The notes beneath the pieces were generated by a model. It was not told where the DNA came from. It ran no database searches and saw only the letters and a list, made by a program, of their open reading frames with translations. Shown in pieces: positions 18,214-40,354 of a stretch of DNA of 64,000 nucleotides. Position 1 is the first letter of the stretch. Each line of letters starts with the position of its first letter. The stretch spans positions 736,001 through 800,000 of the forward strand of contig OY843768.1 in assembly GCA_963693095.2 (NCBI GenBank), read 5' to 3'. Both the position numbers and the translations under genes were made by a program. The stretch comes from Cenarchaeum sp. Lineage in GTDB: Archaea; Thermoproteota; Nitrososphaeria; Nitrososphaerales; Nitrosopumilaceae.

Positions 18214-18360
18214 GGCATGCGTCAGACCCCATGCCAAATATATCCATTTGCCAAGCGCGGGCTCTTGCCTTGCGCAAAAAGTGGCGGGGTGGGCGGGAAC
18301 GCCTGTAGGGTGCAGATCATGCGAGCCCATGGAAGGTCGGCGGGTCAGGGCAGGGAACTA

Positions 18361-20602: not shown

Positions 20603-20954
20603 GGCATGCGTCAGACCCCATGCCAAATATATCCATTCGTCGAGCGCGGGCTCTTGCCTTGCGCATAAAGTGGACACGGGAGCAAGATTGCCGGCAGGGC
20701 GCAGATCAGGGGACTCACTGAAGGCTAGCGAGTCCGGCAGGCTGCCGAAGCACACGTTTGTGGGCCTCCGGCGCTGCGCATCATCGATGCGCTCAAGCGG
20801 CGTCTTTGAGCGCCAAACGGCAAACGCGACTATGGCAAATAACGCAGACAGAATAAACTCGATCGTTGCGCCGTGCTAGGCAGAACCACCAGTCGCGAGA
20901 TCAGCAGGCTCTGATGTGCGATGATGCGCCATCTCACACGCGCATGCCGCGCAG

Positions 20955-23900
20955 CTATTCTGGGGGCGGCGCCGGATACATCTCTAGGAGCTCTAGCTCG
21001 GCGAGGTTTATCTCGTGGGCGATCTTTGCGCGGAGGCGATCGAGATACACCTGCTGATCCTCGGGCTCCGAGGAGACGACATGGGCAGGCGCGGCAGCCG
21101 GCGCGGTCGGCACAACTCCCATGGCATGCAGGTGCTCCCTGGCGATCGCGCGCTCGTATGCGATGAGCTCCGCAAAGCTGTCGGTGCCGCGCGCCCAGCC
21201 ATGCTGCGTCGCGCGTTCCTCGTCATACATTGACTCGTCGATCTCGTGGTATAGCGAGGCGAGGTTGCGCAGTGGCTCGTACGTGCCGGCCGGGGTGATG
21301 CGATAGACGCGGTACTCGTCGTCTAGCATGTACGTCACGTGGCGCGTGTCATAGTCGTACGTTCCGTCGCCGTCGGCATCGACATTGCTGGCGATGAGCG
21401 GGTAAAGCACGAGCGTCCCGTCGTTGACCTCGATGCCGTGGCTCGGGTTTAGCGACTCGCCGGTCACGTGGACGCCGTGGTTGAAAAAGTTCTGCCACGA
21501 GTTGCGCCTCTCGTCCCAGACGACTGTCGAGACGACGTCAAAGTCCAGGGGCTCGCGGAACGTGTGGTGTATCGTGACTATGCGGCACTCGGCGTCAGAG
21601 CCTGCCATGCACGCGCCAATCTCCGAGCTCGCGCGCAGCGTTTCTGCGTCTATCGTGTCGACTGCGCCGCCGACTGACGCCGTCGCGTTGCCGTTGCCGT
21701 ACGGCAGGCTCACCCTTATCTCGGCGCTCGACTCGCCAAAGTGCTGCCCGCGCCCCAGGCCAAAGGCCAGGCCGACGTGCCTGACGTTGAGCGGGCCCGT
21801 GTCCTCAAAGACCTTTATGATCGCGACGTTCTCGACTCCCGTCTCGACGGTTATGAGCGGCATTGGCGTGTAATAGTACTCGGCATCCACGGTCTCGCCG
21901 TTGTACGAGAACCCCTGGCTCACGCGCCTCGTCCCCGTGGAGTCGACTCCCAGCGTCGGCGGCGTGCAGTCATCACAGCCGTCCCCGCCGCCGCCGCTGA
22001 CTCCGGCCTGCGTGGCGCCAAAGCGCGTAAAGTGGTTTGTCCATATCACGAGATCCCCGCCGTCGCGCACGCGGCACTCCTCGAGCCTGATGGCGCCAGA
22101 GCCAATCTCTCCGGGCACCTCTGAGGCGTCACGCGATTCGCACTCGGGTATGGAGTGAACGGTGAGGCCGTCTGCGCCGGACAGCCAGAACGCATGGACC
22201 GCAGCGCCGGCACCGAGCAGCCTTATCGCCACAGGCCTGTCAAATGTCATCGGAGCCGCATCACCGCTCTTGCCGAACTCGACGAGCGTCGCCGGCGGCC
22301 TGGAGGCCAGGACCCTGGTCACTGCCTCGTTGGCCGCAGTCTCCTCCTCGTCTGCTCCAGTCGCTGCGACATACTCGGTGTCGCGCGCCGGGGGCGGGAG
22401 TCGCACGACGACGACGGACTCGTCAGCGTCGTCATCTCCAAAGTCCTCGACCACCGTCGCCTGGGGTAATGTGACAGTCGCCCCGTCCACGTTCACCGTT
22501 ATCGTTCCGGCTAGCGTGTCACTGGGCAGCTCACTCAGGACGATCGTCGTGCTCTCGCCCAGCTCGCCTCTCTCCCCTAGAGCCTTGATTGTGTACGTGC
22601 CTGTGGCAGGCACGGTGAAGAGCTCGGGCACGGTAATAGTGCCGCCAGTCTCGACTAGGGGCGCCGGTATGCTCGACACGGGAACAAGCGGGTTATCGGC
22701 CCTGTCAAACAGACCCGTTATAGAGAGTGTGAAGGGGCCATTTAGTACGCGCTGGTGCGTTTGTCTGATCGTGTGCACGGGAGCGTCGGCAGGTATGTTG
22801 GGCTCAAAGGTATGCCTCGGGCCAAAGAATTCCGCTGTGTCTGGGCCAACCGACAGTATCTCGGCTGCTGTGCCGTGCACAGGCTCGGTGTATATTGTTA
22901 GCTGATGCGTATTTCCCGGTGGGCGAAGCACGTGGAGGAGCTCTGGAGGCACGGTGTCTATGACGGCGTTGCCGCCTGACGTGATGTGCGATTGGGTCAG
23001 TTCCACGTCAGTCGCGGGGTTTGCCCCCGTTGCGCGTATGGCAAACTCTAATGGAGCGTTGTCGTCGGCGGCGTCCACCACGAACGAGTGTGACCACGTC
23101 CTGTCGTCGGTGTCGCCGTTGTTGCCCATCGCCGTCGGCGCGCTTGTCCTGTGCGTGCCCGGCACCGTTATCATCGGTGCCGGCGACGTCACGATGTCCT
23201 CGCTGAACGTGACGTCGAGTGTGATCCTGTCACCGACGTTGGCGTGCTGTGAGTTTGGCCCTGTCCTGTCTGTGAACGAGCCGCTAGCCTCGTTTGCGAC
23301 GGTCAGCGTGAGCGGGTACGCCGAGAGCGGCGCGTCATCCGCAATGTCGTTTGTTGCCGTGTTCGCCGCCAGGCCATTGGGTGCCGTAGACGCGTCAAGT
23401 ATGTCCGGCATCATGGAGGCGGGAACGTCATAGCCCAGCGCGGGCGGCGTGATGGTCGTGTCGCCTGTGCCCCAGCCGCTTGCGATCACGGTCGACTCGG
23501 CCAGCGTGAGCGTGAGCGTGCGCCCGACAAGCTCCGCGGTTCCAAAGTTTGTGCCCGCCGTGACGGCCGCGGCGAGCTCTGTTGCCGTGGGCAATGCCGG
23601 CGGGGTTGTCGTCGTCGCATAGTGGTACCAGCGCGAGGCGTCCGGCCCGCCTGCGGCTGCCGTGACGTCCTCGTCAAACGTGACCTCTATTGACCTGGGC
23701 GACACCGTCTTGGCCGTAAAGAGCGGCGGCAGGCCGTCAATTGCCGTCGTGCGCCCCGCGATGGGCGTGCCGTCAGAGGCCAAGAGCACCGGCATTGTCT
23801 GGCCCGAGACCGGCCTGTACGCAATGTGGGGGGTGGCATCAGAGGCCTGTGCGTCATACCCGATGTAGAACGTGAGCGGCTCGGTGTCGGTGCCAGAGCA

Positions 23901-26900
23901 GATGCTGGTAATGTCAAACGGCGGGGTTGACACCACCGTCGGGGCGCCGCCGCTCGTGCACACAACCGAGAACGCAGAGGCCTGCGTCCCGCCGGTTCCG
24001 TCACGCGCCGTGCCGACAAACCACTCGTCGAGGTTGATGTTGCCCGTGACCATGCTGGTGAACACGATCCTGACATAGGTCGAATCTGCCGCCCTGTGGG
24101 TCGTCGCCGTGTATGCGGCCGGCGGGATCACCTCCACATACTCTTGCGTCACCATCATGTTGGCCGCAAGCGAATTGGGCACCATGGCCTTGTCCGTGAC
24201 CTGGCCGACGCGGATCACATAGGTCTCTCCAACTGTCGCATCATCCCTGAGGGTCATGCGCACAAAGTGATCCGAGCCTGGCTGCGTGAGGCTGGCCACG
24301 CCAAGGTCAGGCGTGATGCCCCATCCGGCAGTCGTGGCTGGCAGCACGACATCCTCGGTGAACGTCACGTGCACGGTTGTGTGCGAGGTGAACGTGACTG
24401 TGTCTATGGAGGGCACGAGCCTGTCCGGAACGATCACCGATGAGCCGGTGGCCAGGGGGTTGCCGGCCCCGTCACTCAGGCCAGTGCCCATATACGTCAC
24501 AGTCGGCGCAAAGCTAGTGTCAACGTCCGCATCGGCGTACGCTATGTCCACTCGGTCGCGCGCCGAGTTGAGGGCCGCGCTCGTGACTGTGACTGCAGTC
24601 GTGCCCTCGGCGACTCCCCAGTCTGCTGAACCCACCGTTGCGCTTCTGGGCAGGTTCTCGGACAGCTTTACAGTCAGCGTCGTGGCCGACGTCGTCCCCG
24701 TGTCAGCGTCTGTGAGCATTGTGGGGGGCGTGCGGTCTATGCTGACGCGGTATCCGGCACCTGCTATGGAGCTGCCGTCAGCATTAGTCGCGCGAGTCGT
24801 CAGGTCAGCGTGCGTGAATGTTGCCGCGTTTCCCTCGGCGTCCCTCACTGTGATGCTGAACGTGACGTCGACCTCTGGCGAGCTGGCCGTCACGGTGTGC
24901 GAATAGTTGTACTGTAGTGGGGCAGAGTTATGTGGCCTGAACATGTGCGAGGCAGTCACCGGCGAGGCCGAGTCCGTAAAGAACATCGCGTCGCCAAGAG
25001 CCGCCACGTTATTGTTAGTGTTGTCATTATACAGTGGAATAAGCGTGTTGCCGACGTAGAGCGGCTCGGTGACTGTTACGTTAACCCACACATTATCGTT
25101 TAGGCGGGCAGGAGCCGCGAGGTCCATCTTGAACGTGCCCATCTCCTTCTTTGTCATGTGCAGCGAGTTTCCGGCTGCCAGTTCGGGCGGCGCGCCGTCA
25201 CTGGCCTCAGTCGAGTACGACAGCACGGCATTCACGCCATCCGTCAGGGTTCCGGCCACATACATGACAGACGGCGTGGCCGCCGTCGAGGAGAGCGGCC
25301 CGTGCGTGATGAGGAGCTCCGTAACGGCAGGGCTCGACGGTATGGACGGCGTGACTGCGTCACCTGCCCCTGCCGAGGTCTCCGGCGTTGCAGTCACCGT
25401 GCCGGAGGTGACCACAGTCGCCACGCTCAATGTCGTCAGCGCCACATTGCCTGCGTCACTGGCCGCGTCGTTCTCGGTGACCGTCCAGTTCCTCGTGTCA
25501 AGCGTGCCCCCAAGGCTGCCATCAAACGTGACCCTCGTTGTGGTCAGCGTCTGTGTCTCGGCCGTAAACGAGTCCGCAGGCGTGATCATGGACGACTCTT
25601 CTGCGCCCACCGCGTTGGCAGGCTCGGCCATGTCCGCTATATCATAGTCTGGAATCACCGTGTACTCCGTGCCAGCCACGATCGGCGAGCCGAGGGTGAG
25701 CGTGTACGTGAGCGGTGACGAGCGCACGGCGGACAGTACCTGTATCCCCACGGGGGTGACGGAGATGCTGCCTTCTTGTTCCACAACCCAGTCGTTGTCC
25801 GTGCCCTCGATGGCCGCGACGTACGGGCTGGACGTGCCCTCTGTGTTCTCCACAAACGTGACGGGCTCGGTGAACGTGACGTGCAGCGAGGTCTGCAGGG
25901 ATATCACGGCTGCCCTTATCTCCGGTGGCGCCGTGTCGGCGGCGACTGCCTGGCCTGTTGGCACAGGCGTGCTGCCGTAGTACAAGTCACCACTCGCCGA
26001 GCTGTATGTCACTTTTGGCGTCGAGGCCGTCGAGGCCAGGCCAACGTGAGTCAGGACGTACGAGCGGGCGAGCACCTCCATATCTTCAAAGATGCCAATT
26101 GCCGACGTGACTGCCATGACCATCCTGTCCGTGCCGTCCTCGCTCACTGTCCAGTCGTCGGCATCGAGTGTGCCGGTCGGGCGCGACGGAAATGTCACGG
26201 CGATGCTATCTGAGTCTAGCGTCCTTGCAGTAAAGACGGCCGGCGGGGCGTCCCCGTTTGCAGCTGACACCGAGCGCTCCGTGACTGCGTTGCCCTGCGC
26301 GTCGGCCAGTCCGGTCGACGGCAGGATGACCGTGTGCTCTATTCCATTAACGGCGTTGGAGGCCAGCGTGATGGTAAGCGTGTTTGTGCCAGTGTCGTAC
26401 GTCGGCGAGCCTGTCGTCTGCGGTACGGTGTCCGGAGCGTCACCATCATCGCTTCCATCAGGCATTGTGACTGTGTACGCCAGGCCGGCTATTGTCTCTG
26501 CGTTGGCCATCGACTCGCCAAAGTTGACTGTGATCATGTTATCCGCGCTAAACGAGGCAACGGGTGCTGGCGGCGTGCCGTCTGTGGCCTGAGGGGCGGG
26601 CATCGCATTAAGCGTTTTGTCCGCAAGATCCACGATCCCCGGCGGGGCACTATCGCCAGTCGGCACCGTATAGGCAACTACCGGCATGGCAGCAGTTGAG
26701 CCCGTGTCCGGGTGTGTCAGTGTGAGTGCGCCGTTGAGCTGGCTGCCAGCAGCCGAGGCGCCAAACCCGCCAACAGTCCATCCGGCAGCGCGCGAGCCGA
26801 CGGCGGGCAGGACGACGGCCTCGCTGAACGAGACGTCCGTCTCGGTTCGGCTCACAGTCTTTGCCGTGTACGTCGGCCGCACTGCGTCGACGGACTCGGC

Positions 26901-29900
26901 GGTGAAATGTGGCACGTTGAGCCCAAGTGGGTTAGCCACAAAGCCAATGCTAATGTTGTGCCTGACAGCCGGTGTGGATCCCGTCGAAGAGAGCGGCGCG
27001 TGCGTGATCGTCATCTCTGTTGCCGTGTTCGTACCTAGTGCAGCGATCAAAGCCTGCCCATGGAGTCGGCTCGCAGATTTGGTGCCTAGCACAATTGTCG
27101 TTACCTGTCTATCCTCGGATGTCATCGAATCACCGTCGTCGTCGTCAGTCACCACCCACTGTCCCACGTTGAGAATATCAGACGGTGCGCCAAAGAACGA
27201 CACAGTCGTGCTCGTCGGCGAGTTTGTCACTGCCGTGAATGGCGGCGCACGAGTCACAACACTCGTGGCCGTCAGGGCGTTGCCGGACGTGTCGGCCAGT
27301 CCGGAGGACGGCAGTGTCACCGTGTACTCATCGTAGCGTAACGCCGGGTCAGTCAACATGAGCTCCAGCGTGCGTGTCGCCGGATTGTACTCGTGCGATC
27401 CTGACAGCGTCACGGTTTCTGTAGGCCCAAGCACGCCAAAGTCGTTTGTCGAAGGCTTTTTGCTCGCCGTGTAGGTGAGGCCCGCTATCGTCTCCGGACT
27501 GGCAAGCTCCTCGCTAAAGGTCACTTTGATCACGCTCGACGTCCCAAATGACGCGCTCGCCGTGGGCCCGATGCCGTCGGTGAGGGGCACAGACGATCCG
27601 GTGCGCAGGACGACGAGTCCTGACGCGTCAACGACCCTGTTGGAGGCCGTGTCGGATCCCGTGTACAGCAGTGCCGTGCCGGCGCCCAAGTGGGTAAAGT
27701 CCAGTGCCTGCGTGCGCGTGAGCGTGATCGTGTTGGCGATGACAACGCCTGTGTCAAACGTTATGCCGCCGCCAATGGTCCACTCTGAGCCCGTGAGGGC
27801 AATATTGGTGTCGACAGACTTTGAGAGCGTCGCGCTCACCTGCGTTGGCGAGTCGAGTGTCGCCGAGACCAGCGTCATCGGGGTGCCGTCGACGACCGTT
27901 TTTGGCGGCGGTATCATGTCGATGCGATCAACCGGCATCAGTTCATCCAGCGTGAACGGGTCGCTGTCCATCGTGTCGCCGCCCGAGTCGGCCAGGGCCG
28001 TCTGTCCTGCCGGAAGCGTCGCGGGCTCCCTGAACAGGATGCCCGGCAGTGATGTCAACTTCGCGTCCAACATTGACGCGTGCCTTAGCGTGAACGCGGT
28101 CGCCGAGTCGAGCTCGACTGTCGGCGAGCGCAGCAGGTCGACTGTGCTGTGCTCGCCGGCCCTGACTGACTGGATCTCCAGGGTAACCGGACCGTCAGAC
28201 GTCGTGCCCTGGAGGCTCCAGTCAGCGGCGCGCAGCGTCCCGCTCACGGCCTCGTCAAGCCTGACTACTGTCGTGCGGTCGCCCGTCGAGAGCGCCACAG
28301 AGATCTCGGGGGCAGGCGAGTCAACGAGCGAGATCCCGCCACTCCCGCTGCTGCGGTTTGGCGGCGTGGCCCCATCCCCAAACTGAGTCGCCTCGGGATA
28401 GTATTCGGCGCTCTTGAGGCGCTGTGGCAGTGTCCCAACCACCTCGTTGGGGTTGGTCGGCGAGACCATGAGATTGGAGCCCCCAACAGAGCCTGCAACA
28501 GATCCACGTGAGAGGCGCTCGGTGTACACTTTGATAACGGAATCTGGAAGTATAGTGACGGGGGCATTGAATCTGGCGCTCACGGTCGTGCCATCACGGC
28601 TAACAGATGCGCTAATAGTGCCAATGCCAACCTTGTCGAGTGCGACGATCTCCCACACCCCGGCGCCCAGGTCCGTGCCGCCAAACACGAGACCCCCGGT
28701 GGCCGGTGAGGTGTACCTGATCGTCGGCGTCTCATCAGGACCCAAGACGTCACTAGAGGCAACTCTAAGGTCAAAGTCTTGCCTCTCAGTTAGCGTTTCC
28801 GTGGGGCCTCTAGGAGGTGTAAAGGGATTTCCAAGTTCCGTAACGGGTATCTCCCTTGTAGAATCAGGGAGGTTGATGATGGTGAACTCGGATGCGCGAA
28901 TCGTGCTGCCGGTTGCAGCGGACCTGAGAACTACTTTGTAGAAACCTTCGCCGATCTTTTCCACACGGTCGAACGGCGACATGTGCGTCAGTGTGCACGT
29001 GGCGCCGCACGTTGCGGGGTCAAATGGGGTGCCAGCGCTGTTCTCGAATGTCGGCGCGATGGTGTACGCGACGCCGTGGATCGCATTGGCGCTTAGCGTG
29101 GCCGTGACGATCATGGCGGTGGTACGCGCAACACTCGACACGGTGATCACGTCTGGCAGGGTGTCTGCGTCATGGGGAGTTAACGTGTTGTCAGGCGCCG
29201 TGACCCCAAGGTTGGACGTAGTGACGGTGGACATGTCGATGGTATCGTCAAACGTCATGCGAATCGTCTTTGAGCCCGTAAACTCTGCAGAGCTCAAAAC
29301 CAGCGGCGCCGTGTACGTCAGTTCGCACGTGGCGCCGCACGTTGTGGGGTCAAATGGGGTGCCGGGGCCGTTTGCGAATGTTGGCGCGATGGTGTAAACG
29401 ACGCCGGGGATCGCATTGGCGCTTAGCGTGGCCTCGATATTCCTGGCGGTAAGACGGTTAACACCCGACACGGTGATCTCGTCTGGCATGGTGTCTGCGT
29501 CATGGGGAGTTAACGTGTTGTCAGGCGCCGTGACCCCAAGGTTGGACGTAGTGACGGTGTCAGCGGCGATAGTGTCCACGAACTTCATGAGAATCGTCAT
29601 TGGGCCCGTAAACTCTGCTGATGACAGAACATTCGCGCGCACGAGCACGCTGGCAGTGTTGCCTGACGTGATATCTTGCCAATTTATCAGGTCTGCCCCC
29701 GATGTTGGGCTTGTGTTTGGGGCAGTTGCCGTGTCCGTGGCCACGATGGTAAAGGTGAGTGTGAAACCACCGGTGTCAGCGGCGTCTATAGTGAACGTGT
29801 GCGACCAGCTCCGGTCATTGCCGTCGGCGGTGTTGACCATGTCCACGGCCGTCGGCGTCCTGTGCGCTCCAGGGACCACTATCGTCGGCGCCGGCGATGT

Positions 29901-30137: not shown

Positions 30138-30159
30138 ACTGCCGCCCTCTCAACATACG

Positions 30160-30215
30160 AGTATATAACACAATTGGTGGGTTTGCGCCCAAAATGCCTC
30201 CCCCCCCCCCCCCCC
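30160..30215 (-). promoter_or_regulatory. TATA box (TTATATA, about 30162-30168) with upstream G16 tract (C16 on +, 30200-30215)
   Basis: The TATA box lies about 25-30 nt upstream of the ATG at 30137, and the homopolymer about 32 nt further upstream; same layout at copy 2. Confidence 0.6.
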
Positions 30216-30385
30216 ATACGGCATGCCCCGACCTAGCCACAGAGCCTTTTGCGAACCTTGGCCTGCCAAACAATATCGTTCGGGTTTCAGCAATGCTCGG
30301 CGCATCAGACTCAGAGTCGTTACGCTCGTCGTTCTCCATGCGGCAGCATGACTTAATTTCAGTATGAAGTGCTGGGCCGTGCCCT

Positions 30386-30442: not shown

Positions 30443-30773
30443 CTAGAGGCGGCCAACAGGCCCTGTCATGTCGCCGCGCAGGGATATCCCCGGTATACTG
30501 GTGTGCGCCTTTGGCGCGCCTGCAAAAGGATCGCATGCTGGATGGGCCGTGCCGGGCTTGCGCCCCTCGGGACGTGCTCGCCGCCGCCGGAATCGCGCGT
30601 CCTGCCTGGGATGGGTTTGCGTCGGCATGGTGTTCTGGATGCCAGGTTTGGCCGTGCCGCAGGACCCGGCGCTAAACGGGCCTGGCAGTGCCACCTGGGC
30701 AGAACCACCAGTCCCGAGATCAGAAGACTCTGATGTGCGATGGCGCGCCATCTCACACGCGCATGCCGCGCAG

Positions 30774-33700
30774 CTATTCTGGGGGCGGCGCCGGATACAT
30801 CTCTAGGAGCGCAAGCTCGGCGAGGTTTATCTCGTGGGCGATCTTTGCGCGGAGGCGCTCGAGGTACTCCTGCTGATCCTCGGGCTCCGAGGAGACGACA
30901 TGGGCCGGCTCGGCAGTCGGTGCGGTCGGCACAACTCCCATGGCATGCAGGTGCTCCCTGGCGATCGCGCGCTCGTATGCGATGAGCTCCGCAAAGCTGT
31001 CGGTGCCGCGCGCCCAGCCATGCTGCGTCGCGCGTTCCTCGTCGTACATTGACTCGTCGATCTCGTGATAGAGCGAGGAGAGGTTGCGCAGTGGCTCGTA
31101 CGTGCCGGCCGGGGTGATGCGATAGACGCGGTACTCGTCGTCTAGCATGTACGTCACGTGGCGCGTGTCATAGTCGTACGTTCCGTCGCCGTCGGCATCG
31201 ACATTGCTGGCGATGAGCGGGTAAAGCACGAGCGTCCCGCCGTTGACCTCGATGCCGTGGCTCGGGTTTAGCGACTCGCCGGTCACGTGGACGCCGTGGT
31301 TGAAAAAGTTCTGCCACGAGTTGCGCCTCTCGTCCCAGACGACTGTCGAGACGACGTCAAAGTCCAGGGGCTCGCGGAACGTGTGGTGTATCGTGACTAT
31401 GCGGCACTCGGCCTCCGAGCCCGCCATGCACGCGCCGATCTCCGAGCTCGCGCGCAGCGTCTCGGCGTCTATCGTGTCGACTGCGCCGCCCACTGAGGCC
31501 GTCGCGTTGCCGTTGCCGTACGGCAGGCTCACCCTTATCTCGGCGCTCGACTCGCCAAAGTGCTGCCCGCGCCCCAGGCCAAAGGCCAGGCCGACGTGCC
31601 GGACGTTGAGCGGGCCCGTGTCCTCAAAGACCTTTATGATCGCGACGTTCTCGACTCCCGTCTCGACGGTTATGAGCGGCATTGGCGTGTAATAGTACTC
31701 GGCATCCACGGCCTCTCCGTTGTACGAGAACCCCTGGCTCACGCGCCTGGTCCCCGTGGAGTCAACTCCTAGCGTCGGCGGCGTGCAGTCATCGCAGCCG
31801 TCCCCGCCGCCGCCGCCGCCGGCTCCGGCCTGCGTGGCGCCAAAGCGCGTAAAGTGGTTTGTCCATATCACGAGATCCCCGCCATCGCTCACGCGGCACT
31901 CCCTGAGCTCGATGGCGCCAGAGCCAATACCTCTCGGCACCCCAGAGTCATCAAACGATTCGCACTCGGGTATGGAGTGAACGGTTAGGCCATCTGCGCC
32001 GGACAGCCAGAACGCGTGAGCCGCAGCGCCGGCACCGAGCAGCCTTATTGCCACAGGCCTGTCAAATGTCATCGGAGTCGCATCACCGCTCTTGCCGAGC
32101 TCGACGAGCGTCGCCGGCGGCCTGGAGGCCAGAACCCTGGTCACTGCCTCGTTGGCCGCAGTCTCCTCCTCGTCTGCTCCCATCGCCGCAACATACTCGG
32201 TGTCGCGCGCCGGGGGCGGGAGTCGCACGACGACGACGGACTCGTCAGTGTCAACATCCCCAAAGTCCTCGACCACCGTCGACTGGCGTAATGTGACAGT
32301 CGCCCCGTCCACGTTCACCGTTATCGTTCCGGCTAGCGTGTCACTGGGCAGCGAACTCAGGATGATCCTCGTGCTCTCGCCCAGCTCGCCTCTCTCCTCC
32401 CCCACAGCCTCGATTGTGTACTCGCCTGTGGCAGGCACGGTGAGCTCGAGCGCGCTAAGAGTGCCGCCAGCCTCGACCAGGGGCGCCTGCATGGTCGGCA
32501 CGGGAACAAGCGGGTTACCGGCCCTGTCAGTCAGGCCCGATATGCTGATTGTGAAGGGGCCAAAGTTCACGCGCGAGTGATCTTGTCTGATCGTGTGCGT
32601 GGCAGCTTCGGGAGCTATGGTAAGCGTAAAGGTATGGACCTGGCCAAGTGAGCCAGTCGACACTATACTGGCTACGCCGTGCACAGGCTCGGTGTATATT
32701 GTCAGCTGATGCGTATTTCCCGGTGGGCGAAACACTTGGAGGAACTCTGGAGGCTCGGTGTCTATGACGGCGTTGCCTCCGGACGTGATGTCCGACTGGG
32801 TCAGTTCCAGGGCAGTCGCGGGGTTTGCCCCTGTTGCGCGTATGGCAAACTCTAATGGAGCATTGTCGTCGGCGGCGTCCACCACGAACGAGTGTGACCA
32901 CGTCCTGTCGTCGGTGTCACCGGCGTTGTTCATCGCCGTCGGCGCGTTTGTCCTGTGCGTGCCTGGCACCGTTATCGTCGGTGCCGGTGACGTTACGATA
33001 TCCTCGCTGAACGTGACTTCGAATGTGATCCTGTCACCGACGTTGGCGTGCTGTGAGGTTGCCCCTGTCCTGTCCGTGAACGAGCCGCTAGCCTCGTCTG
33101 CGACGGTCAGCGTGAGCGGGTACGCCGAGAGCGGCGCGTCATCGGCAATGTCGTTCGTTGCCGTGCCGGTCACCAGGCCATTGGGTGCCGTGGACGCGTC
33201 AAGTATGTCCGGCTGCTCGGAGGAAGGGACGTCATAGCCCAGCGCAGCCGGCGTGATGGTCGTGTCGCCTGTGCCCCAGCCGGTTGTGATCACGGTCGAC
33301 TCGGCCAGCGTGAGCGTGAGCGTGCGCCCGTCAAGCTCCGCTGTTCCAAAGTTTGTGCCCGCCGTGACGGCCGCGGCGAGCTCTGTTGCCGTGGGCAGTG
33401 CCGGCGAGGTCGTCGCCGTCGCATAGTGGTACCAGCGCGAGGCGTCAGGCCCGCCGGCGGCGGCCGTGACGTCCTCGTCAAACGTGACCTCTATTGACCT
33501 GGGAGACACCGTCTTGGCCGTAAAGAGCGGCGGCAGGCCGTCAATTGCCGTCGTGCGCCCCGCGATGGGCGTGCCGTCAGAGGCCAAGAGCACCGGCATT
33601 GTCTGGCCCGAGGCCGGCCTGTACGCGATGTGGGGGGTGGCATCAGAGGCCTGCGCGTCATACCCGATGTAGAACGTGAGCGGCTCGGTGTCTGTGCCTT

Positions 33701-36700
33701 GGCATATGCTGGTAATGTCAAACGGCATGGCTGACACCGCCGTCGGGGCGCCGCCGCTCGTGCACACAGCCGAGAACGCAGTGGCCTGCGTCCCGCCGGT
33801 TCCGTCACGCGCCGTGCCGACAAACCACTCGTTGAGGTGGATGTTGCCCGTGACCATGCTGGTGAACACGATCCTGACATAGGTCGAGTCTGCCGCCCTG
33901 TGGGTCGTCGCCGTGTATGCGGCCGGCGGGATTATCTCCAAATACTCTTGCGTCACCTGCGTGCCGGCCGCAAGCGAGTTGGGCACCGTGGCCTTGTCCG
34001 TGACTTGGCCGAGGCGGATCATATAGGTGTCTCCAAGTGTCGCAGGATTCTCGAGGTTCATGCGTATAAAGCGATCCGAGCCGGGCTGCGTGAGGCTGAC
34101 CGTGCCAAGGCCAGGCGAGATGCTCCATCCGGCAGGCGAGGATGGCAGCGCGACGCCTTCGGTGAACGTCACGTGCACGGTTGTGTGTGAGTGGAACCTG
34201 ACAGTGTCTATGGAGGGCACGAGCCGGTCCGGAGCGATCACCGTTGAGCCGCTGGCCAGGGGGTTGCCGGCCCCGTCACTCAGGCCAGTGCCCATATACG
34301 TCACAGTAGGCGCAAAGCTAGTGTCAACGTCCGCATCCGCGTACCCTATGGTCACGAGGTCGCGCGCCGAGTTGAGGGTCGTGCTCGTGACTGTGACTGC
34401 AGTCGTGCCCTCGGCGACTCCCCAGTCTGCTAGAGCCACCGTTGCGCCTCTAGGCAGGTTCTCGGACAGCTTTACGGTCAGCGACGTGGCTGACGTCGTC
34501 CTCGTGTCAGCGTCTGTGAGCATTGTGGGGGGCGTGCGGTCTATGCTGACGCGGTATCCGGCACCTGCTATGGAGCTGCCGTCAGCATTAGTCGCGCGGG
34601 TCGTCAGGTCAGCGTGCGTGAATGTTGCCGCGTTTCCCTCAGCGTCCCTCACGGTGATGCTGAACGTGACGTCGACCTCTGGCGAGCTGCTCGTCACGGT
34701 GTGCGAATAGTTGTACTGTAATGGGGCAGATTGAAATGGCCTGAACATGTGCGAGGCAGTCACCGGCGAGGCCGAGTCCGTAAAGAACATCGCGTCGCCA
34801 AGAGCCGCCACGTTATTGTTAGTGTTATCATTATACAGTGGAATGAGCGTGTTGCCGACGTAGAGCGGCTCGGTGACTGTTACGTTAACCCACACATTAT
34901 CGTTTAGGCGGGCAGGAGCCGCGAGGTCCATCTTGAACATGCCCATCTCCTTCTTTGTCATGTGCAGCGAGTTTCCGGCTGCCAGTTCGGGCGGCGCGCC
35001 GTCACTGGCCTCAGTCGAGTACGACAGCACGGCATTCACGCCATCCGTCAGGGTTCCGGCCACATACATGACAGACGGCGTGGCCGCCGTCGAGGAGAGC
35101 GGCCCGTGCGTGATGAGGAGCTCCGTGACGGCAGGACTCGACGGTATGGCCGGCGTGGCTGCGTCACCGGCCCCTTCCGAGGTCTCCGGCGTTGCAGTCA
35201 CCTTGCCGGAGGTGGCCACAGTCGCCACGCTCAATGTCGTCAGCGCCACATTGCCTGCGTCACTGGCCGCGTCGTTCTCGGTGACCGTCCAGTTCATCGT
35301 GTCAAGCGTGCCTCCAAGGCTGCCATCAAACGTGACCCTCGTTGTGGTCAGCGTCTGCGTCTCGGCCGTAAACGAGTCCGCAGGCGTGATCATGGACGAC
35401 TCTTCTGCGCCCACCGCGTTGGCAGGCTCGGCCATGTCCGCTATATCACCGTCTGGAATCACCGTGTACTCCCTGTTAGCCACGATCTCCGAGCCGAGGC
35501 TGAGTGTGTACGTGAGCGGTGTTGCGCGCATGGCGGACAATACGAGTATCTCCACAGGGGAGGCGGAGTTGTCTTCTTCTTCTGCCACAACCCAGTCGTT
35601 GTCCGTGCCTTCGGTGCCCTCGACGTACGGGTCGAACGTGTCCTCTATGTTCTCCACAAACGTGACGGGCTCGGTGAACGTGACGTGCAGCAAGGTCGGC
35701 GTGGATATCACGGAGGACGATATCTCTGGGGGTGCCGTGTCAGCGGCGGTGGCCTGGCTTGTCGTCAACACTGTAGTGCCGTAGGTCAGGTCGCCATCAG
35801 TGGCCGTGTATGTCACCTTTGGCGTCGAGGCCGTCGAGGCCAGGCCGTCGTGCGTTAGGATGATCGAGCGGAGAAGGTCACCAGTGCCTTCGAGAATCCC
35901 CGTCGCCGCCGAGACTGCCGTGACGCGCCTGTCCGTGCCGGCCTCGGTCACGGCCCAGTCGTCGGCATCCAGTGTGCCGCCCGGCTGGAGCGGGAACGTC
36001 ACGGCGATTGTCCTCGAGTCTATCGTCCTGGCCGTAAAGGCCGCCGGCGGGGCGTCCCCAAATGCCGTTGACACCGAGCGCTCCGTGACTGCGTTGTCCT
36101 GCGCGTCGGCCAGGCCGGTCGACGGCAGGCTGACTGTGTGCTCGACGCCAGTCGTGGCCGCAGAGGCCAGCGTGATGGTGAGCGTGTTCGTGCCTGCGTT
36201 GTACGCCGGCGATCCCGCTGCCTGCGGCACGGCGTCCGGATCGCCGCCGGCGTCGTCCCCGTCAGGCACGGTCACGGCGTACGTCAGGGTCGCTATCGTC
36301 CCCGCGTTGGCCATCGCCTCGCCAAAGTTGACCGTGATCGTGTCAGCCGCGCCAAACGAGGCCACGGGCGTCGGGGGGGCGCCGTCTGCGGCCATCCTTG
36401 CCGCCTGTGCGGAGAGCGCGTTGCCCACAGGATCCACGATCCCCGGCGGGGCGTTCGAACCGGTCGGCACCGTGTAGGTGACCGGCGGCGTGGCCCCAGT
36501 CGACGCCGTGTCCGCATGATACAGCGTTAATGCGCCAGAGGGCTGGCTGCCGGCATGCGAGGCCTGATGCCCTCCAACTTGCCATCCAGCGGCGCGCTCT
36601 CCGGCGACAGGCAGCACGACGGCCTCGCTGAACGTAATGTCCGTCCCGGTGCGGCTCACAGTCTTTGCCGTGTACGTCGGAGGCACATTGTCGACTGCCT

Positions 36701-39700
36701 CGGCGTTGTGATACGGCACGGAGAGTCCCTGGGCGGCCGACGGGCTACCGCTCACCCCTGGGGGCAGGCCGATTTGGGGGACGAAGTTGTGCCTCACATT
36801 TGGCGTGGATCCCGTCGATGAGAGCGTCGCGTGCGTGATTATCATCTCGGTCGCCGTGTTCGATGCAGGCAGCTTCAATGTGGGAAGGAGTTGCGATTGA
36901 GCCGCAATCAAGGACGTGGTGCCCAGCACGAGTGAGGATATCGGCCTCCTCTCGGATGTCCCCGGATCACCGTCATCATCATCAGTCACTATCCAATGGC
37001 CAAGGTTGAGAAAGCCGCTAGTCAACGGCGGGCCAAAGAACGACACAGTCGTTCTCGTCGGCGAGTCTGTCACTGCCGTGAATGGCGGCGCAGTCGCCAT
37101 GGCAGTCGTGGTCGTCAGGGCGTTGCCAGACGTGTCGGCCAGTCCCGTGGACGGCAGTGCCACCGCGTACACGTCGCGGTGTGTCGCCGTGCCGGCCAGC
37201 ATCAGCTCCAGCGTGTGCGTGAGTGGGTTGTACTCGTGTGGCCCGGACAGCGTCACTGCTGTCGAGTCCTCGGTCACCGTGTAGGTGAGGCCCGCTATCG
37301 TCTCCGGACTGGCAAGGGCCTCGCTAAAGGCCACATTGATCACGCCGGGTGCCCCAAATGACGCGCTCGCCGTGGGCCCGATGCCGTCGGTGAGGGGCAC
37401 AGACGATCCGGTGCGCAGGACGACGCGTCCTGACGCGTCAATGACCCTGTTGGAGGCCGTGTCGGATCCCGTGTACAGCAGTACCGTGCCGGCGGCCAGG
37501 TCGGTAAAGTCCAGTGCCTGCGTGCGCGTGAGCGTGATCCTGTCGGCGGCGACATGGCCCGTGTCAAACGTTATGCCGCCGCCAATGGTCCACTCTGAGC
37601 CCGTGAGGGCAATATTGGCGTCGACTGCCCTTGAGAGCGTCGCGCTCACCTGCGTTGGCGAGTCGAGTGTCGCCGAGACCAGCGTCATCGGGGTGCCGTC
37701 GACGACCGTTTTTGGCGACGGTATCTCACGTGTGCGATCAACCAACATCAGTTCATCCAGCGTGAACGGGTCGGTGTCCATCGGGTCGCCGCCAGAGTCG
37801 GCCATGGCCGTCTGTCCTGCCAAAAGCGTCGCCGGCTTTGCGAACATGATGCCCGGCATTGATGTCAAATCCAAATTCGATATTGACTCGTGCCTTAGCG
37901 TAAACGCAGTCGCCGAGTCGAGCTCTACTGTTGGCGTGCGCAGCAAGTCGAGTGTGCTGTGCTCGCCGGCCCTGACTGACTGGATCTCCACGGTGACCGG
38001 ACCGTCAGACGTCATGCCACTGAGGCTCCAGTCAGCGGCGCGCAGCGTCCCGCTCACGGCCTCGTCAAGCCTGACTACTGTCGTGCGGTCGCCCGTCAAG
38101 AGCGCCACGGAGATCTCGGGGGCAGGCGAGTTAACGACCGAGATCCCGGATCTCCCAGCGGACTGGTTTGGCGGCGTGGCCCTATCCGCAAAGTTCTGCG
38201 CATCGGGAATGTATTCGCCGCTCTTGAGGCGCTGTGGCAGTGTCCCAACCACCTCGTTGGGGTTGGTCGGCGAGACCATGAGATTGGAGCCCCCAACAGA
38301 GCCTGCAACAGGTCCTGTTGTGCCGACCGCGGTGTGCACACGTATAACGGACTCTGGAAGCACAGTGACGGGGCCACTGAATGTGACTCTCACGCTCGTG
38401 CCATCACTGCTAACAGATGGGGGACGAGTGGTAATGCTCACCTTGTCGACTGCGACGATATCCCACACCCCGGCGCCCAGGTCCGTGCCGCCAAACGCAA
38501 GACCCCCAGTGGCCGGCGAGGTGTACCTGATCGTCGGCGTCTCATCAGGACCCAAGCCGTCAGAAAAGGCAACGCGAATGTCAAAGTCTAGCCTGTTATC
38601 TATCGTGGACGTGACACCTCTACCAGCGGATGAAAAGGGATGTCCAACTGCCGTAACGGGTATTTCCCTCGTAGAATCAGGGAGGTTGATGATGACGAAC
38701 TCGGATGCGCGAATCGTGCTGCCGACCGCATTGGACTTGAGAACTGCAAAATAGCTGTTATCGCCGGTCTTGTCCACACGGAACGGCGGCGTGTGCGTCT
38801 GTGTGCACGTGGCGGCGCACGTTGCGGGGTCAAATGGGGTGCCAGCGCTGTTCTCGAATGTCGGCGCGATGGTGTAAACGACGCCAGGGATCGCATTGGC
38901 GCCTAGCGTGGCCGTGACGATCATGGCGGTAGTACGCGCAACACTCGACACGGTGATCACGTCTGGCAGGGTGTCTGCGTCATGGGGAGTTAACGTGTTG
39001 TCAGGCGCCGTGACCCCAAGGTTGGACGTGGTGACGGTGGACATGTCGATGGTATCGTCAAACGTCATGCGAATCGCCTTTGAGCCCGTAAACTCTGCAG
39101 AGCTCAAAACCAGCGGCGCCGTGTACGTCAGTTCGCACGTGGCACCGCACGTTGCGGGGTCAAATGGGGTGCCATAGCTGTTCTCGAATGTTGGCGCGAT
39201 GGTGTACGCGACGCCGGGGATCGCATTGGCGCCTAGCGTGGCCGTGGCGACAAAGGCGGTAGTACGGACAACATTCGACACCCCGATCATGTCTGGCAGG
39301 GTGTCCCCGTCAGGGGGAGTTATCGTGTTGTCAGGCGCCGTGACCTCAATGTTGGACGGAATGACAGTGGACGTATCGAGGGTACTGGAAAACTGCATGC
39401 GAATCGTCCTTGGGCCCGTAAACTCTGCAGAGGACAGAGCCAGCGGCCGCGCGTTCACCAGGGCATTGTTGCCAGACGTGATCTGTGAACCTGTTATCGA
39501 TCCCGTCCCCGTTGAGGGGTTTGTGTTTGCGGTGGGAGTTGCCGTGTCCGTGGCCACGATGGTAAAGGTGAGGCCGAAACTACCGCGGTCAGCGGCATCC
39601 ACAACGAACGAGTGCGACCAGGTCAGGCCATCAGAGTCACCGGCGTCGCCCATCGCCGTGGCCGTCGGTGTCCTGTGCGCGCCAGGCACCGTTATCGTCG

Positions 39701-39950
39701 GCGCCGGCGATGTCACGACGGCCTCGTTGAACGTCACGGCTATGGTGACCCTGTCGCCGGCGTTCGCCCAGTTCAAAGTACCTCCCGTGCGATCCACAAA
39801 GGTGCCGTCAACATTGTCGGCCACGGTGACTGTGAGGACGGTGACCCCCGGAGGCGTCGTGTCTGCCCCCTGGGCCGTCGCACCGCTGACAGAGGCGGCA
39901 AGAAAGAGCGACATGATCGCAAACGCCAGTGTTGGCACTGCAGCCCGCAT
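30774..39950 (-). CDS. Giant secreted surface protein with Ig-like/SwmB-like repeats (3058 aa), copy 2
   Basis: Colinear paralog of 20955-30137 (offset about 9.82 kb); near-identical signal peptide and C-terminal domain. Confidence 0.9.
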   Translation of the reverse strand: MRAAVPTLAFAIMSLFLAASVSGATAQGADTTPPGVTVLTVTVADNVDGTFVDRTGGTLNWANAGDRVTIAVTFNEAVVTSPAPTITVPGAHRTPTATAMGDAGDSDGLTWSHSFVVDAADRGSFGLTFTIVATDTATPTANTNPSTGTGSITGSQITSGNNALVNARPLALSSAEFTGPRTIRMQFSSTLDTSTVIPSNIEVTAPDNTITPPDGDTLPDMIGVSNVVRTTAFVATATLGANAIPGVAYTIAPTFENSYGTPFDPATCGATCELTYTAPLVLSSAEFTGSKAIRMTFDDTIDMSTVTTSNLGVTAPDNTLTPHDADTLPDVITVSSVARTTAMIVTATLGANAIPGVVYTIAPTFENSAGTPFDPATCAATCTQTHTPPFRVDKTGDNSYFAVLKSNAVGSTIRASEFVIINLPDSTREIPVTAVGHPFSSAGRGVTSTIDNRLDFDIRVAFSDGLGPDETPTIRYTSPATGGLAFGGTDLGAGVWDIVAVDKVSITTRPPSVSSDGTSVRVTFSGPVTVLPESVIRVHTAVGTTGPVAGSVGGSNLMVSPTNPNEVVGTLPQRLKSGEYIPDAQNFADRATPPNQSAGRSGISVVNSPAPEISVALLTGDRTTVVRLDEAVSGTLRAADWSLSGMTSDGPVTVEIQSVRAGEHSTLDLLRTPTVELDSATAFTLRHESISNLDLTSMPGIMFAKPATLLAGQTAMADSGGDPMDTDPFTLDELMLVDRTREIPSPKTVVDGTPMTLVSATLDSPTQVSATLSRAVDANIALTGSEWTIGGGITFDTGHVAADRITLTRTQALDFTDLAAGTVLLYTGSDTASNRVIDASGRVVLRTGSSVPLTDGIGPTASASFGAPGVINVAFSEALASPETIAGLTYTVTEDSTAVTLSGPHEYNPLTHTLELMLAGTATHRDVYAVALPSTGLADTSGNALTTTTAMATAPPFTAVTDSPTRTTVSFFGPPLTSGFLNLGHWIVTDDDDGDPGTSERRPISSLVLGTTSLIAAQSQLLPTLKLPASNTATEMIITHATLSSTGSTPNVRHNFVPQIGLPPGVSGSPSAAQGLSVPYHNAEAVDNVPPTYTAKTVSRTGTDITFSEAVVLPVAGERAAGWQVGGHQASHAGSQPSGALTLYHADTASTGATPPVTYTVPTGSNAPPGIVDPVGNALSAQAARMAADGAPPTPVASFGAADTITVNFGEAMANAGTIATLTYAVTVPDGDDAGGDPDAVPQAAGSPAYNAGTNTLTITLASAATTGVEHTVSLPSTGLADAQDNAVTERSVSTAFGDAPPAAFTARTIDSRTIAVTFPLQPGGTLDADDWAVTEAGTDRRVTAVSAATGILEGTGDLLRSIILTHDGLASTASTPKVTYTATDGDLTYGTTVLTTSQATAADTAPPEISSSVISTPTLLHVTFTEPVTFVENIEDTFDPYVEGTEGTDNDWVVAEEEDNSASPVEILVLSAMRATPLTYTLSLGSEIVANREYTVIPDGDIADMAEPANAVGAEESSMITPADSFTAETQTLTTTRVTFDGSLGGTLDTMNWTVTENDAASDAGNVALTTLSVATVATSGKVTATPETSEGAGDAATPAIPSSPAVTELLITHGPLSSTAATPSVMYVAGTLTDGVNAVLSYSTEASDGAPPELAAGNSLHMTKKEMGMFKMDLAAPARLNDNVWVNVTVTEPLYVGNTLIPLYNDNTNNNVAALGDAMFFTDSASPVTASHMFRPFQSAPLQYNYSHTVTSSSPEVDVTFSITVRDAEGNAATFTHADLTTRATNADGSSIAGAGYRVSIDRTPPTMLTDADTRTTSATSLTVKLSENLPRGATVALADWGVAEGTTAVTVTSTTLNSARDLVTIGYADADVDTSFAPTVTYMGTGLSDGAGNPLASGSTVIAPDRLVPSIDTVRFHSHTTVHVTFTEGVALPSSPAGWSISPGLGTVSLTQPGSDRFIRMNLENPATLGDTYMIRLGQVTDKATVPNSLAAGTQVTQEYLEIIPPAAYTATTHRAADSTYVRIVFTSMVTGNIHLNEWFVGTARDGTGGTQATAFSAVCTSGGAPTAVSAMPFDITSICQGTDTEPLTFYIGYDAQASDATPHIAYRPASGQTMPVLLASDGTPIAGRTTAIDGLPPLFTAKTVSPRSIEVTFDEDVTAAAGGPDASRWYHYATATTSPALPTATELAAAVTAGTNFGTAELDGRTLTLTLAESTVITTGWGTGDTTITPAALGYDVPSSEQPDILDASTAPNGLVTGTATNDIADDAPLSAYPLTLTVADEASGSFTDRTGATSQHANVGDRITFEVTFSEDIVTSPAPTITVPGTHRTNAPTAMNNAGDTDDRTWSHSFVVDAADDNAPLEFAIRATGANPATALELTQSDITSGGNAVIDTEPPEFLQVFRPPGNTHQLTIYTEPVHGVASIVSTGSLGQVHTFTLTIAPEAATHTIRQDHSRVNFGPFTISISGLTDRAGNPLVPVPTMQAPLVEAGGTLSALELTVPATGEYTIEAVGEERGELGESTRIILSSLPSDTLAGTITVNVDGATVTLRQSTVVEDFGDVDTDESVVVVRLPPPARDTEYVAAMGADEEETAANEAVTRVLASRPPATLVELGKSGDATPMTFDRPVAIRLLGAGAAAHAFWLSGADGLTVHSIPECESFDDSGVPRGIGSGAIELRECRVSDGGDLVIWTNHFTRFGATQAGAGGGGGGDGCDDCTPPTLGVDSTGTRRVSQGFSYNGEAVDAEYYYTPMPLITVETGVENVAIIKVFEDTGPLNVRHVGLAFGLGRGQHFGESSAEIRVSLPYGNGNATASVGGAVDTIDAETLRASSEIGACMAGSEAECRIVTIHHTFREPLDFDVVSTVVWDERRNSWQNFFNHGVHVTGESLNPSHGIEVNGGTLVLYPLIASNVDADGDGTYDYDTRHVTYMLDDEYRVYRITPAGTYEPLRNLSSLYHEIDESMYDEERATQHGWARGTDSFAELIAYERAIAREHLHAMGVVPTAPTAEPAHVVSSEPEDQQEYLERLRAKIAHEINLAELALLEMYPAPPPE

Positions 39951-39972
39951 ACTGCCGCCCTCTCAAGACGCG

Positions 39973-40027
39973 AGTATATAATACCGTTGGTGGGTTTGCG
40001 CCCAAAATGCCCCCCCCCCCCCCCCCC
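39973..40027 (-). promoter_or_regulatory. TATA box (TTATATA) with upstream G18 tract (C18 on +, 40010-40027)
   Basis: Same architecture as the promoter of copy 1, with a different tract length. Confidence 0.6.
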
Positions 40028-40354
40028 ACATACAGGCACCTGCCGAGCCGCAAGGCCGTCTGCGATCAGCAGAGCCTCGGACAGTGGCAGACACGCACGG
40101 GGGCAGGGGCGCCACAAGGCCAGGCGGAAAAGCACCCATTCCAGCATAAACCCAGAATCCCACCGGCAGACAAAAGATCCCACGGGCCATAAACCCCCCT
40201 CCCATGCCATTGGACCATCATCCCCACAGCCACAGCCCCACGCGTGGGCACACCGCCATGAACGGCGAGCCGGCAGAACCCCCACAGCCACGCCAACGGG
40301 CCGCTGCCAGGGCGCCCCAACGGTTTTAACACCAAGGCGCGCGCGCGCGATCGC

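Follow-up and report, generated by a model that had tools for sequence, protein, structure and literature searches.

A tandem pair of giant genes for putative surface proteins in Cenarchaeum as a probable recombining and partly diversifying mosaic of sequence cassettes

Antigenic variation by segmental gene conversion, in which stretches of an expressed gene are replaced from paralogous sequence, is known from pilE/pilS of Neisseria, vlsE of Borrelia and msp2 of Anaplasma, and such shuffling of surface cassettes is a hallmark of pathogens facing adaptive immunity. A related phenomenon has been described in Plasmodium falciparum, where the paralogous surface antigens DBLMSP and DBLMSP2 share deeply diverged sequence lineages by way of non-allelic gene conversion (Letcher et al., 2024; PMC10919680). 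Among Archaea, the Methanosarcinales carry mosaic surface loci with PKD/immunoglobulin-like (Ig) domains, in which the C-terminal domain is conserved or homogenised; in the Thermococcales, the VARTIG module recombines between species. The parts of the paper that deal with these systems state that Ig domains of comparable variability were not found outside the Thermococcales, and they make no mention of Nitrosopumilaceae living in sponges (Makarova et al., 2021; PMC8416519). The subject of the present report is a tandem pair of genes, here called A and B, in Cenarchaeum, an ammonia-oxidising archaeon that lives as a symbiont of sponges. They lie in a 64-kb window, the whole stretch of DNA that was analysed, which corresponds to positions 736001-800000 of contig C1 of a 2.0-Mb, two-contig Cenarchaeum genome (G000). 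We consider it probable that A and B are functional genes for giant secreted, probably cell-attached proteins that evolve as a recombining segmental mosaic with partial diversification.

Both genes are intact open reading frames (ORFs) on the minus strand of the window:

20955..30137, minus strand: gene A, 3060 amino acids (aa), with a signal peptide, repeated beta modules, a putative ZU5/GAIN-like module and a conserved C-terminal module; intact ORF

30774..39950, minus strand: gene B, 3058 aa, paralogue of A and the copy adjacent to the PGK gene; intact ORF

The repeated unit, about 9.4 kb long, spans 20876-30254 and 30695-40065, at an offset of 9804-9843 nucleotides (nt; about 9.82 kb) and with a 440-nt unique spacer between its two copies, in agreement with the original prediction for this DNA, which had noted a duplicated segment of about 9.3 kb at an offset of about 9.82 kb. 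In global alignments, the two proteins are identical at 2489 of 3077 columns (81%, with 36 gap columns) and the two genes at 8037 of 9123 aligned nucleotides (88.1%). Over the whole gene, synonymous divergence (dS) is 0.162, non-synonymous divergence (dN) 0.119 and their ratio, omega, 0.73 (Nei-Gojobori). The flanking genes are archaeal, among them PurP-type DUF1297/DUF1246, aEF-2, XPD and futalosine-pathway MqnA/MqnC-like genes.

The differences between A and B are far from evenly spread. Identical runs of at least 60 nt number 22, against a mean of 0.27 in 1000 shuffles, and the longest measures 187 nt, against a mean shuffled maximum of 54; the 91-bp identity that had been singled out in the prediction (28411-28501 versus 38221-38311) is exact and belongs to a full run of 93 nt (28409-28501 versus 38219-38311). 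Thirty-two patches, which occupy 533 of the 3077 columns, hold 332 of the 588 differing columns, the index of dispersion of differences per 10-aa window is 2.19, and all six peptides quoted earlier as examples of variable patches do lie at homologous positions (aa 433, 536/537 and 2422/2425). The picture of identical frameworks with variable patches therefore stands as regards the strong clustering, but “identical” was an overstatement, as the frameworks themselves differ with a dS of 0.128 and a dN of 0.061, and a 570-codon core, aa 841-1410, is diverged throughout (dS 0.488, omega 0.48). The patches are also less GC-rich, as had been claimed, with a GC fraction of 0.577/0.602 (A/B) against 0.635/0.639 in the frameworks, and 0.637/0.665 against 0.773/0.779 at third codon positions (GC3).

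The same arrangement recurs in two further genomes. On the 1.64-Mb chromosome of another Cenarchaeum (G005), a tandem pair stands beside PGK, with B2 (2957 aa) as the proximal and A2 (3057 aa) as the distal copy. Yet another Cenarchaeum assembly holds a third pair, X and Y, together on a single contig of 118,781 bp; this pair is the only further match among 2852 candidates scored in a set of 5.8 billion proteins. All six ORFs (A, B, A2, B2, X and Y) are intact, at about 3000 aa each. This distribution bears on the possibility of an assembly artefact, in which two strain haplotypes of one gene would have been placed in tandem or a chimeric mosaic built. Short-read contigs from public sequencing runs are indeed shattered here, into 1059 pieces in one run, and no listed piece from those runs spans the stretch; but a tandem pair with a unique spacer and a promoter of its own for each copy is found in three separate assemblies, two of which are complete or nearly complete chromosomes (one and two contigs), the flanks of G000 and G005 are syntenic at 92-94% identity, and the 12% difference between the copies is one that long reads can resolve. 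An artefact is, in our judgement, very improbable.

Site patterns at the DNA level, which cover the four copies A, B, A2 and B2, reveal how the clusters are organised. Parsimony-informative sites comprise 562 that are swapped between the genomes (A=B2, B=A2), 63 that are positional (A=A2, B=B2) and 84 that follow the genome (A=B, A2=B2), and the three kinds fall in contiguous blocks:

29388..30047, minus strand: block I of A (aa 31-250); three alleles in the four DNA copies, A=A2 with B and B2 each distinct

39114..39863, minus strand: block I of B; a cassette in common with an internal stretch of a 16,120-aa gene (G000:C1:370713-371462)

25908..28970, minus strand: block II of A (aa 390-1410); present as two morphs, one common to A and B2 and the other to B and A2, in positions swapped between the genomes

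24768..25517, minus strand: block III (aa 1541-1790); A=B, with A2 and B2 each distinct

22458..22937, minus strand: block IV (aa 2401-2560), which contains the third of the example patches; the alleles are A, B=A2=Y, B2 and X, and omega is 2.15-2.19 for A versus B

Windows starting at aa 390-1365 contain 540 swapped sites with two positional and two genome-pattern ones, and aa 2850-3060 show the within-genome pattern only; the patterns given for blocks I and IV extend over aa 31-240 and aa 2409-2560. The third genome adds further combinations: in block III, X resembles A and B, and Y resembles B2; X is the same as A at aa 1-240 and 98% identical to it at aa 240-299; Y has the sequence of B at aa 2372-2599; and between alignment columns 781 and 1140, which correspond to about aa 778-1122 of A, X and Y are 100% identical to each other. 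Four alleles occur among the six copies at aa 420-478, and each variable segment has two to four, conserved at 93-100% between genomes. Judged by these patterns, the patches are oligomorphic cassettes that have been re-assorted between copies and genomes; the open-ended hypervariability envisaged in the original prediction does not hold, and neither would open-ended hypermutation describe them. Where short, strongly non-synonymous patches occur within a surface protein, a diversity-generating retroelement or another targeted mutator of the kind might be suspected of programmed hypermutation, but the patch alleles are stable between genomes, the patches are spread over many modules instead of being limited to one C-terminal target, and the reverse-transcriptase family PF00078 was not found in the genome, which is 99.55% complete and in which the control searches matched. 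A template repeat with adenine-specific mismatches accompanied by a reverse transcriptase was not found, and we give this explanation next to no weight. Compensated frameshifts were also considered as a source of the patches and rejected: nucleotide identity in the codon alignment is 0.55-0.88, and free alignment brings none of the patches near identity.

Divergence within and between morphs indicates how the cassettes may have travelled. The two morphs of aa 841-1410 differ by a dS of 0.46-0.49 and a dN of 0.24, and copies of the same morph by a dS of 0.03-0.05; on these values this largest divergent block is old. Same-morph dS between G000 and G005 (0.031-0.051) is below that of all 13 flanking single-copy genes (0.083-0.329), and cassettes would therefore have moved between lineages after the two genomes split, assuming similar mutation rates. 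At the other end of the gene, the C-terminal 211 codons have a dS of 0.05-0.07 within genomes versus 0.17-0.20 between them, a pattern of concerted evolution within each genome that, together with the tract in which X equals Y, shows conversion between the two copies. The view that gene conversion homogenises the frameworks is thus borne out by the C-terminus and the X=Y tract but is incomplete, as variable cassettes have moved too.

A third partner appears to take part. Block I of B agrees with the internal stretch of the 16,120-aa gene at 92.5% nucleotide identity over 750 nt, where gene A reaches 80.0%, and two 60-column windows are 100% identical, which indicates ectopic conversion between the two in either direction. 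A search for ectopic donors of the block III allele of B2 gave nothing closer than 85%, and for the block IV allele of A no donor emerged. When the locus was compared by blastn with the whole genome, no truncated donor cassettes appeared and the one near-identical outside stretch was part of a giant gene that is itself intact. Among 7999 candidates scored in the 5.8-billion-protein set, none was a shorter fragment of aa 380-700. Recombination within a single copy has also left a trace: B2, the PGK-proximal copy of G005 (L021 2627-11500), is without one module of about 110 aa, one of two “SSAEFTG” repeats (aa 256-366 of A), and its sequence shows a loss by recombination between internal repeats. 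Short contigs assembled from four public runs, which belong to two studies, together extend over the entire locus and show 649 variant positions; in one of the runs, contigs pass from B to A at homologous points, a weak piece of evidence, as graph assemblies can create such joins. Assembled contigs of this kind do not distinguish between strains and variants within a clone. Contigs from other samples contain small deletion/insertion pairs a few bases apart (window 25450-25458, 31342-31344 and 35238-35240); such pairs, for instance 2 nt out and then two single G in, would re-code two or three codons with the frame intact.

How the locus compares with the described systems can now be stated. As with pilE/pilS, vlsE and msp2, segments appear to be copied from paralogous sequence, with conserved frameworks as the recombination substrate; unlike there, A and B are both full length with promoters of their own, and the exchange is seen on evolutionary time scales. 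Resemblance to antigenic variation, as originally proposed, is not supported in the strict sense of a silent archive, a single expression site and switching within a clone: the blastn comparison with the whole genome found no silent promoter-less archive, and both twins have a TATA box and an ATG. The closest phenomenon is the DBLMSP/DBLMSP2 pair. In both cases paralogous surface genes have discrete, deeply diverged allele lineages, one lineage can occur in either paralogue, and conversion explains the sharing; at the Cenarchaeum locus, we find discrete diverged lineages, the same lineage in both positions and direct signatures of non-allelic conversion. The Cenarchaeum proteins differ in being archaeal, unrelated in sequence and ten times longer, and in having several independently re-assorting blocks of two to four alleles; moreover, a third partner, the giant gene, takes part, and the host of Cenarchaeum is without adaptive immunity (compared with Letcher et al., 2024). 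The closest archaeal systems are the PKD/Ig loci of the Methanosarcinales and VARTIG. With the former the twins have in common that they are archaeal, large, secreted proteins of Ig fold encoded by side-by-side genes with recombination mosaics, unlike them they have no Pfam PKD or CARDB domain that could be detected, and the exchange between species known from VARTIG has a counterpart in the exchange that the low same-morph dS suggests for A and B (compared with Makarova et al., 2021). In VARTIG, however, it is the C-terminal Ig domain that varies, together with variable downstream genes, whereas the C-terminal 340 aa are the most conserved part of A and B (omega 0.13), and the ORFs downstream of the twins match neither Pfam nor NCBIfam families and have no counterpart in the G005 flank. 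A literature search found no paper on these Cenarchaeum genes, and a word search of two genomics papers on sponge Thaumarchaeota (PMC7848895 and PMC6697440) gave no mention of them.

The signs of selection differ from block to block. The 13 flanking single-copy genes have an omega of 0.05-0.19 between G000 and G005, and A versus B gives 1.22 in block I. Three further blocks depart in either direction:

27618..28970, minus strand: sub-block aa 390-840 of A, which contains the first two example patches; omega 1.48, dS 0.106, Fisher p 0.043

aa 2401-2540: omega 2.15, dS 0.106, Fisher p 0.016

aa 2721-3060: omega 0.13, dS 0.087, Fisher p 2.4e-7

Within aa 390-840, the patches have a dS close to that of the framework (0.13 versus 0.10) and a dN of 0.47, which speaks for accelerated amino-acid change and against greater age. 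In some blocks, then, the excess of amino-acid change points to diversifying selection on the putatively exposed array. The original prediction of diversifying selection finds its support in these two blocks of high omega (1.48 and 2.15) but not in aa 841-1410, where omega is 0.5. An alternative is a neutral history, in which an old tandem duplicate drifts under weak constraint while sporadic conversion erases tracts, and the patches are the unerased rest, with neither diversifying selection nor function behind them. An overall omega of 0.73 would suit it, as would the high dS (0.49) of the largest divergent block with its omega of 0.5, a patch dS that exceeds framework dS over the whole gene (0.362 versus 0.128), and the share of unchanged residues with a synonymous difference, 41 of 195 within patches and 187 of 2237 in frameworks. 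The lower GC3 of the patches would fit GC-biased conversion of the frameworks, and variable sites are not concentrated in loops, where the original prediction had placed them: in the modelled region described below, 57 of 166 strand residues and 56 of 170 non-strand residues vary (odds ratio 0.94, p 0.82). What speaks against drift is the equality of patch and framework dS in aa 390-840 beside the dN and omega values just given for that sub-block and for aa 2401-2540. Same-morph alleles, moreover, are 93-100% conserved across genomes and younger than the flanking genes, so that the cassettes would have been retained and spread and not left to decay, and six ORFs of about 9 kb remain intact. 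We judge a purely neutral history unlikely and favour a mosaic of recombining cassettes with diversification in some of its blocks.

The proteins themselves have the anatomy of secreted, surface-type proteins, a conclusion supported by their sequence. Hydrophobic 19-mer windows occur only at aa 1-26, a signal-like N-terminus with no other hydrophobic segment after it, and the composition is rich in Thr (14%), with 12 Cys in nearby pairs. Searched as whole proteins, A and B match no Pfam family at E<=0.01, and 300-aa pieces and C-terminal pieces give nothing over the Pfam cut-off (Big_5, PF13205, reaches 21.4 bits on one 300-aa piece, under its gathering cut-off of 23.6); nor did an NCBIfam search return a match. 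Internal repeats are evident between aa 29-120 and aa 2266-2357 (54%) and between aa 170-279 and aa 280-389 (72-76%), with several weaker pairs. For aa 380-900, an AlphaFold2 model based on an alignment of 11 rows has a mean predicted local distance difference test score (pLDDT) of 61 and is all-beta, with block pLDDT of 66-91 over aa 389-724; the representative library gave nine matches to this query at E<=0.001, the query protein included, and the folding alignment was therefore shallow. Foldseek places the model nearest to tandem FN3/Ig arrays and to the giant adhesins SiiE and Bap (E 1e-7 to 3e-5 for the top matches). Assignment of aa 389-724 to Ig/FN3-like beta-sandwich modules is thereby supported, which upholds for the modelled segment the Ig-like domains of the original prediction, and the internal repeats suggest that the array beyond these roughly three modelled modules is beta-modular too.

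Two further modules follow the array:

22005..22454, minus strand: putative ZU5/GAIN-like (MAIN-like) module, aa 2562-2711 of A; W-T-N-H-F-T at aa 2699-2704, with HFT at 22026-22034

20958..22004, minus strand: C-terminal module, aa 2712-3060; a Gly linker, a CDDCTPPTLG domain, a D-x-D-G-D-G acidic motif and two terminal helices

The first recalls the MAIN proteins, whose order of parts is signal peptide, adhesion domains, MAIN and surface anchor, which have been surveyed in Archaea among others, and whose catalytic motif, common to GAIN and MAIN domains, is H-x-(S/T) in an inter-strand turn (Brogan and Rudner, 2026; bioRxiv 10.64898/2026.05.12.724683). Of the aligned paralogues that extend over the H and T of H-F-T (aa 2702 and 2704, or H141 and T143 of the C-terminal 499-aa piece), at least 90% have kept these residues, and in a model of the C-terminal 499 aa, a poor one (mean pLDDT 57), the motif falls at the junction of strands 134-142 and 144-148, that is, between the last two strands. 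VIA-align relates residues 1-152 of this model both to ZU5-ANK (3f59_A; Z 6.5, root-mean-square deviation (rmsd) 4.2, 111 residues aligned) and to the GAIN region of CD97 (9mqr_A residues 376-540; Z 6.3, rmsd 3.8, 114 aligned), at Z values below 8 of a kind common by chance; among the matches listed, these two alone cover the first 150 residues. Foldseek finds no match to the C-terminal 499-aa model at E<=0.001, and a profile of the C-terminal family (an alignment of 16 sequences) matches PDB sequences only as noise at E>1. The order of parts and an H-x-(S/T) in a turn between beta strands are likenesses to the MAIN proteins; differences are that A and B have no sortase, SLH or other known anchor, and that the likeness rests on the motif and a match of Z 6.3-6.5 (compared with Brogan and Rudner, 2026). 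Membership of aa 2562-2711 in the GAIN/MAIN-type modules is likely but unproven, and by analogy the module may cut the chain.

Downstream of it, aa 2712-3060 contain no transmembrane segment, and this C-terminal module presumably attaches the protein to the cell surface. It is also the part of the twins most widely met with elsewhere: at least seven other very long frames of G000 (1061 to 16,125 aa) end in a counterpart of the C-terminal 499 aa, with 50-63% identity, the nearest public relatives of these 499 aa come from metagenome-assembled genomes of Cenarchaeum sp., and weaker matches to part of the C-terminal module occur in 18 of the 41 genomes searched, G000 included. Giant genes are a conspicuous feature of this genome, with ORFs of at least 3000 aa covering about 17% of contig C1 (including one 3370-aa antisense frame taken as spurious) and the largest open frames measuring 24623, 16161, 16120, 14560 and 11148 aa. 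The pair thus offers a compact handle on the function of giant genes that make up about 17% of the genome, 9-kb genes present in three genomes being far easier to study.

Upstream of both twins, and in the same order, stand a TATA-like box and a long G tract:

30162..30168, minus strand: TTATATA box 25-31 nt ahead of the ATG of gene A; predicted promoter

39975..39981, minus strand: TTATATA box of gene B; predicted promoter

30200..30215, minus strand: poly-G tract of gene A, with a coding-strand length of 16 nt and located 31 nt upstream of TTATATA; 19 nt in the G005 orthologue

40010..40027, minus strand: poly-G tract of gene B, with a coding-strand length of 18 nt and located 28 nt upstream of TTATATA; 17 nt in the G005 orthologue

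These promoters are predicted from sequence alone; the box lies 25-31 nt before the ATG in each twin, and the same box stands ahead of other giant genes. Homopolymers of at least 10 nt number only 16 in the whole genome. Eight G/C tracts reach 14 nt or more, and in six cases the best ATG opening a gene of at least 3000 aa follows 59-81 nt further downstream, each time with a TATA-like box in between (genes of 16120, 5241, 16161, 3060, 3058 and 24623 aa); four other giant genes have no G-run of 6 nt or more within 200 nt upstream. At three orthologous promoters, tract lengths in G000/G005 are 16/19, 18/17 and 21/17, and a fourth pair, 18/19 at the largest gene, was assigned from coordinates only; all are assembly-level lengths of homopolymers, which are error-prone. 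Contigs from the public runs break at the poly-G tracts. Conserved in place and varying in length, the tracts look like a slippage switch, and, being slippage-prone, may additionally vary expression. Promoter homopolymers of this kind cause phase variation of bacterial surface proteins, as with the C-stretch of the Bordetella fim promoter and the poly-G of Neisseria porA. The Cenarchaeum tracts resemble these in being long G/C homopolymers just upstream of surface-gene promoters, kept in place and differing in length between related genomes; they differ in belonging to archaeal promoters and in their place, which is not within a spacer but 28-31 nt ahead of the TATA box. A literature search found no paper on promoter homopolymer switching in archaea. 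On sequence and model likeness, the locus is a candidate archaeal case both of such switching and of GAIN-type self-cleavage, which have so far been shown in bacteria or animals.

Taken together, the twins would be built in the order signal peptide, long array of beta modules, ZU5/GAIN-like module with H-F-T and conserved C-terminal module. The outward array would be divided into blocks, each represented by a small number of diverged allelic cassettes, which homologous recombination would carry along three routes: from one twin to the other through non-allelic gene conversion, in exchange with at least one further giant gene as donor or recipient, and across related lineages. As a result, each genome would hold a different combination. 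The anchor end, in turn, would be kept uniform by conversion and purifying selection. The anatomy, the mosaic arrangement, the signatures of conversion and the dN/dS values are established by the data. We regard A and B as a real and well-supported recombining, partly diversifying pair of giant archaeal surface-protein genes, whose function and selective agent are matters of inference; the agent may be host recognition, viruses or cell-cell recognition. The same genetic architecture that marks pathogens facing adaptive immunity would here occur in an archaeal symbiont of sponges, which have innate recognition only, and this widens the range of organisms in which such systems are to be expected; the architecture includes several blocks that re-assort independently of each other, an anchor end that stays conserved, a donor stretch within another giant gene, alleles that cross lineages and slippery promoter tracts. 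A more far-reaching proposal, which we put forward as speculative and on balance doubtful, is that Cenarchaeum possesses programmed surface variation, the first in Archaea, in which the giant genes serve as a library of Ig-like cassettes copied into two expressed “display” genes, poly-G tracts switch or tune each promoter at random and a GAIN-like self-cleaving joint sheds the array. If true, such variation would let a vertically or horizontally transmitted symbiont keep altering what sponge innate recognition, or its own viruses, see.

Several observations weigh against the account of a diversifying, recombining surface-protein pair and its extensions. As regards selection, omega is 0.5 in the most diverged block (aa 841-1410); where omega exceeds 1 at the level of blocks, significance is only marginal (p 0.043 and 0.016); the omega of 3.6 obtained for the patches of aa 390-840 is inflated because patches were picked by their amino-acid differences; and variable sites show neither the enrichment in loops discussed above (odds ratio 0.94, p 0.82) nor a significant i/i+2 alternation within strands (p 0.10). 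As regards recombination, allele numbers are lower bounds drawn from six copies in the three genomes carrying the pair, and the contigs that join B to A are possibly chimeras of the de Bruijn graph via shared words of 11 and 37 nt. Confidence in the models is modest (mean pLDDT 61 for aa 380-900 and 57 for the C-terminal 499 aa), and the ZU5/GAIN match is middling (Z 6.3-6.5), without support from Pfam, NCBIfam or PDB sequences. The lengths of the poly-G tracts were read from assemblies, where homopolymers are prone to error, and the tracts, 28-31 nt upstream of the TATA box, lie outside any core-promoter spacer; none of the public RNA runs is listed as carrying the stretch.

The remainder of the window holds several further features. 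No tRNA genes or Rfam families were found in its 64 kb. On one side of the twins, an IS630-type (DDE_3) transposase gene (18386-19462), with eight copies in the genome at 99.7-100%, sits between two paralogous ORFs of about 400 aa (17146-18330 and 19538-20755; 89% aa identity); tblastn found neither the transposase nor the two ORFs in the G005 flanks examined. A second transposase family, at about 49-51% identity, has 11 full-length copies. On the other side, just downstream of the PGK gene, two adjacent direct repeats of 61 nt (41599-41720) are 75% identical, and each starts with A9. Beyond them, six units of about 1.19 kb follow one another in tandem at window positions 42953-50771, where GC is low (0.47-0.56), and each unit encodes a protein of about 186 aa; these proteins have no Pfam match, are 74-91% identical to one another, and have matching units in G005.

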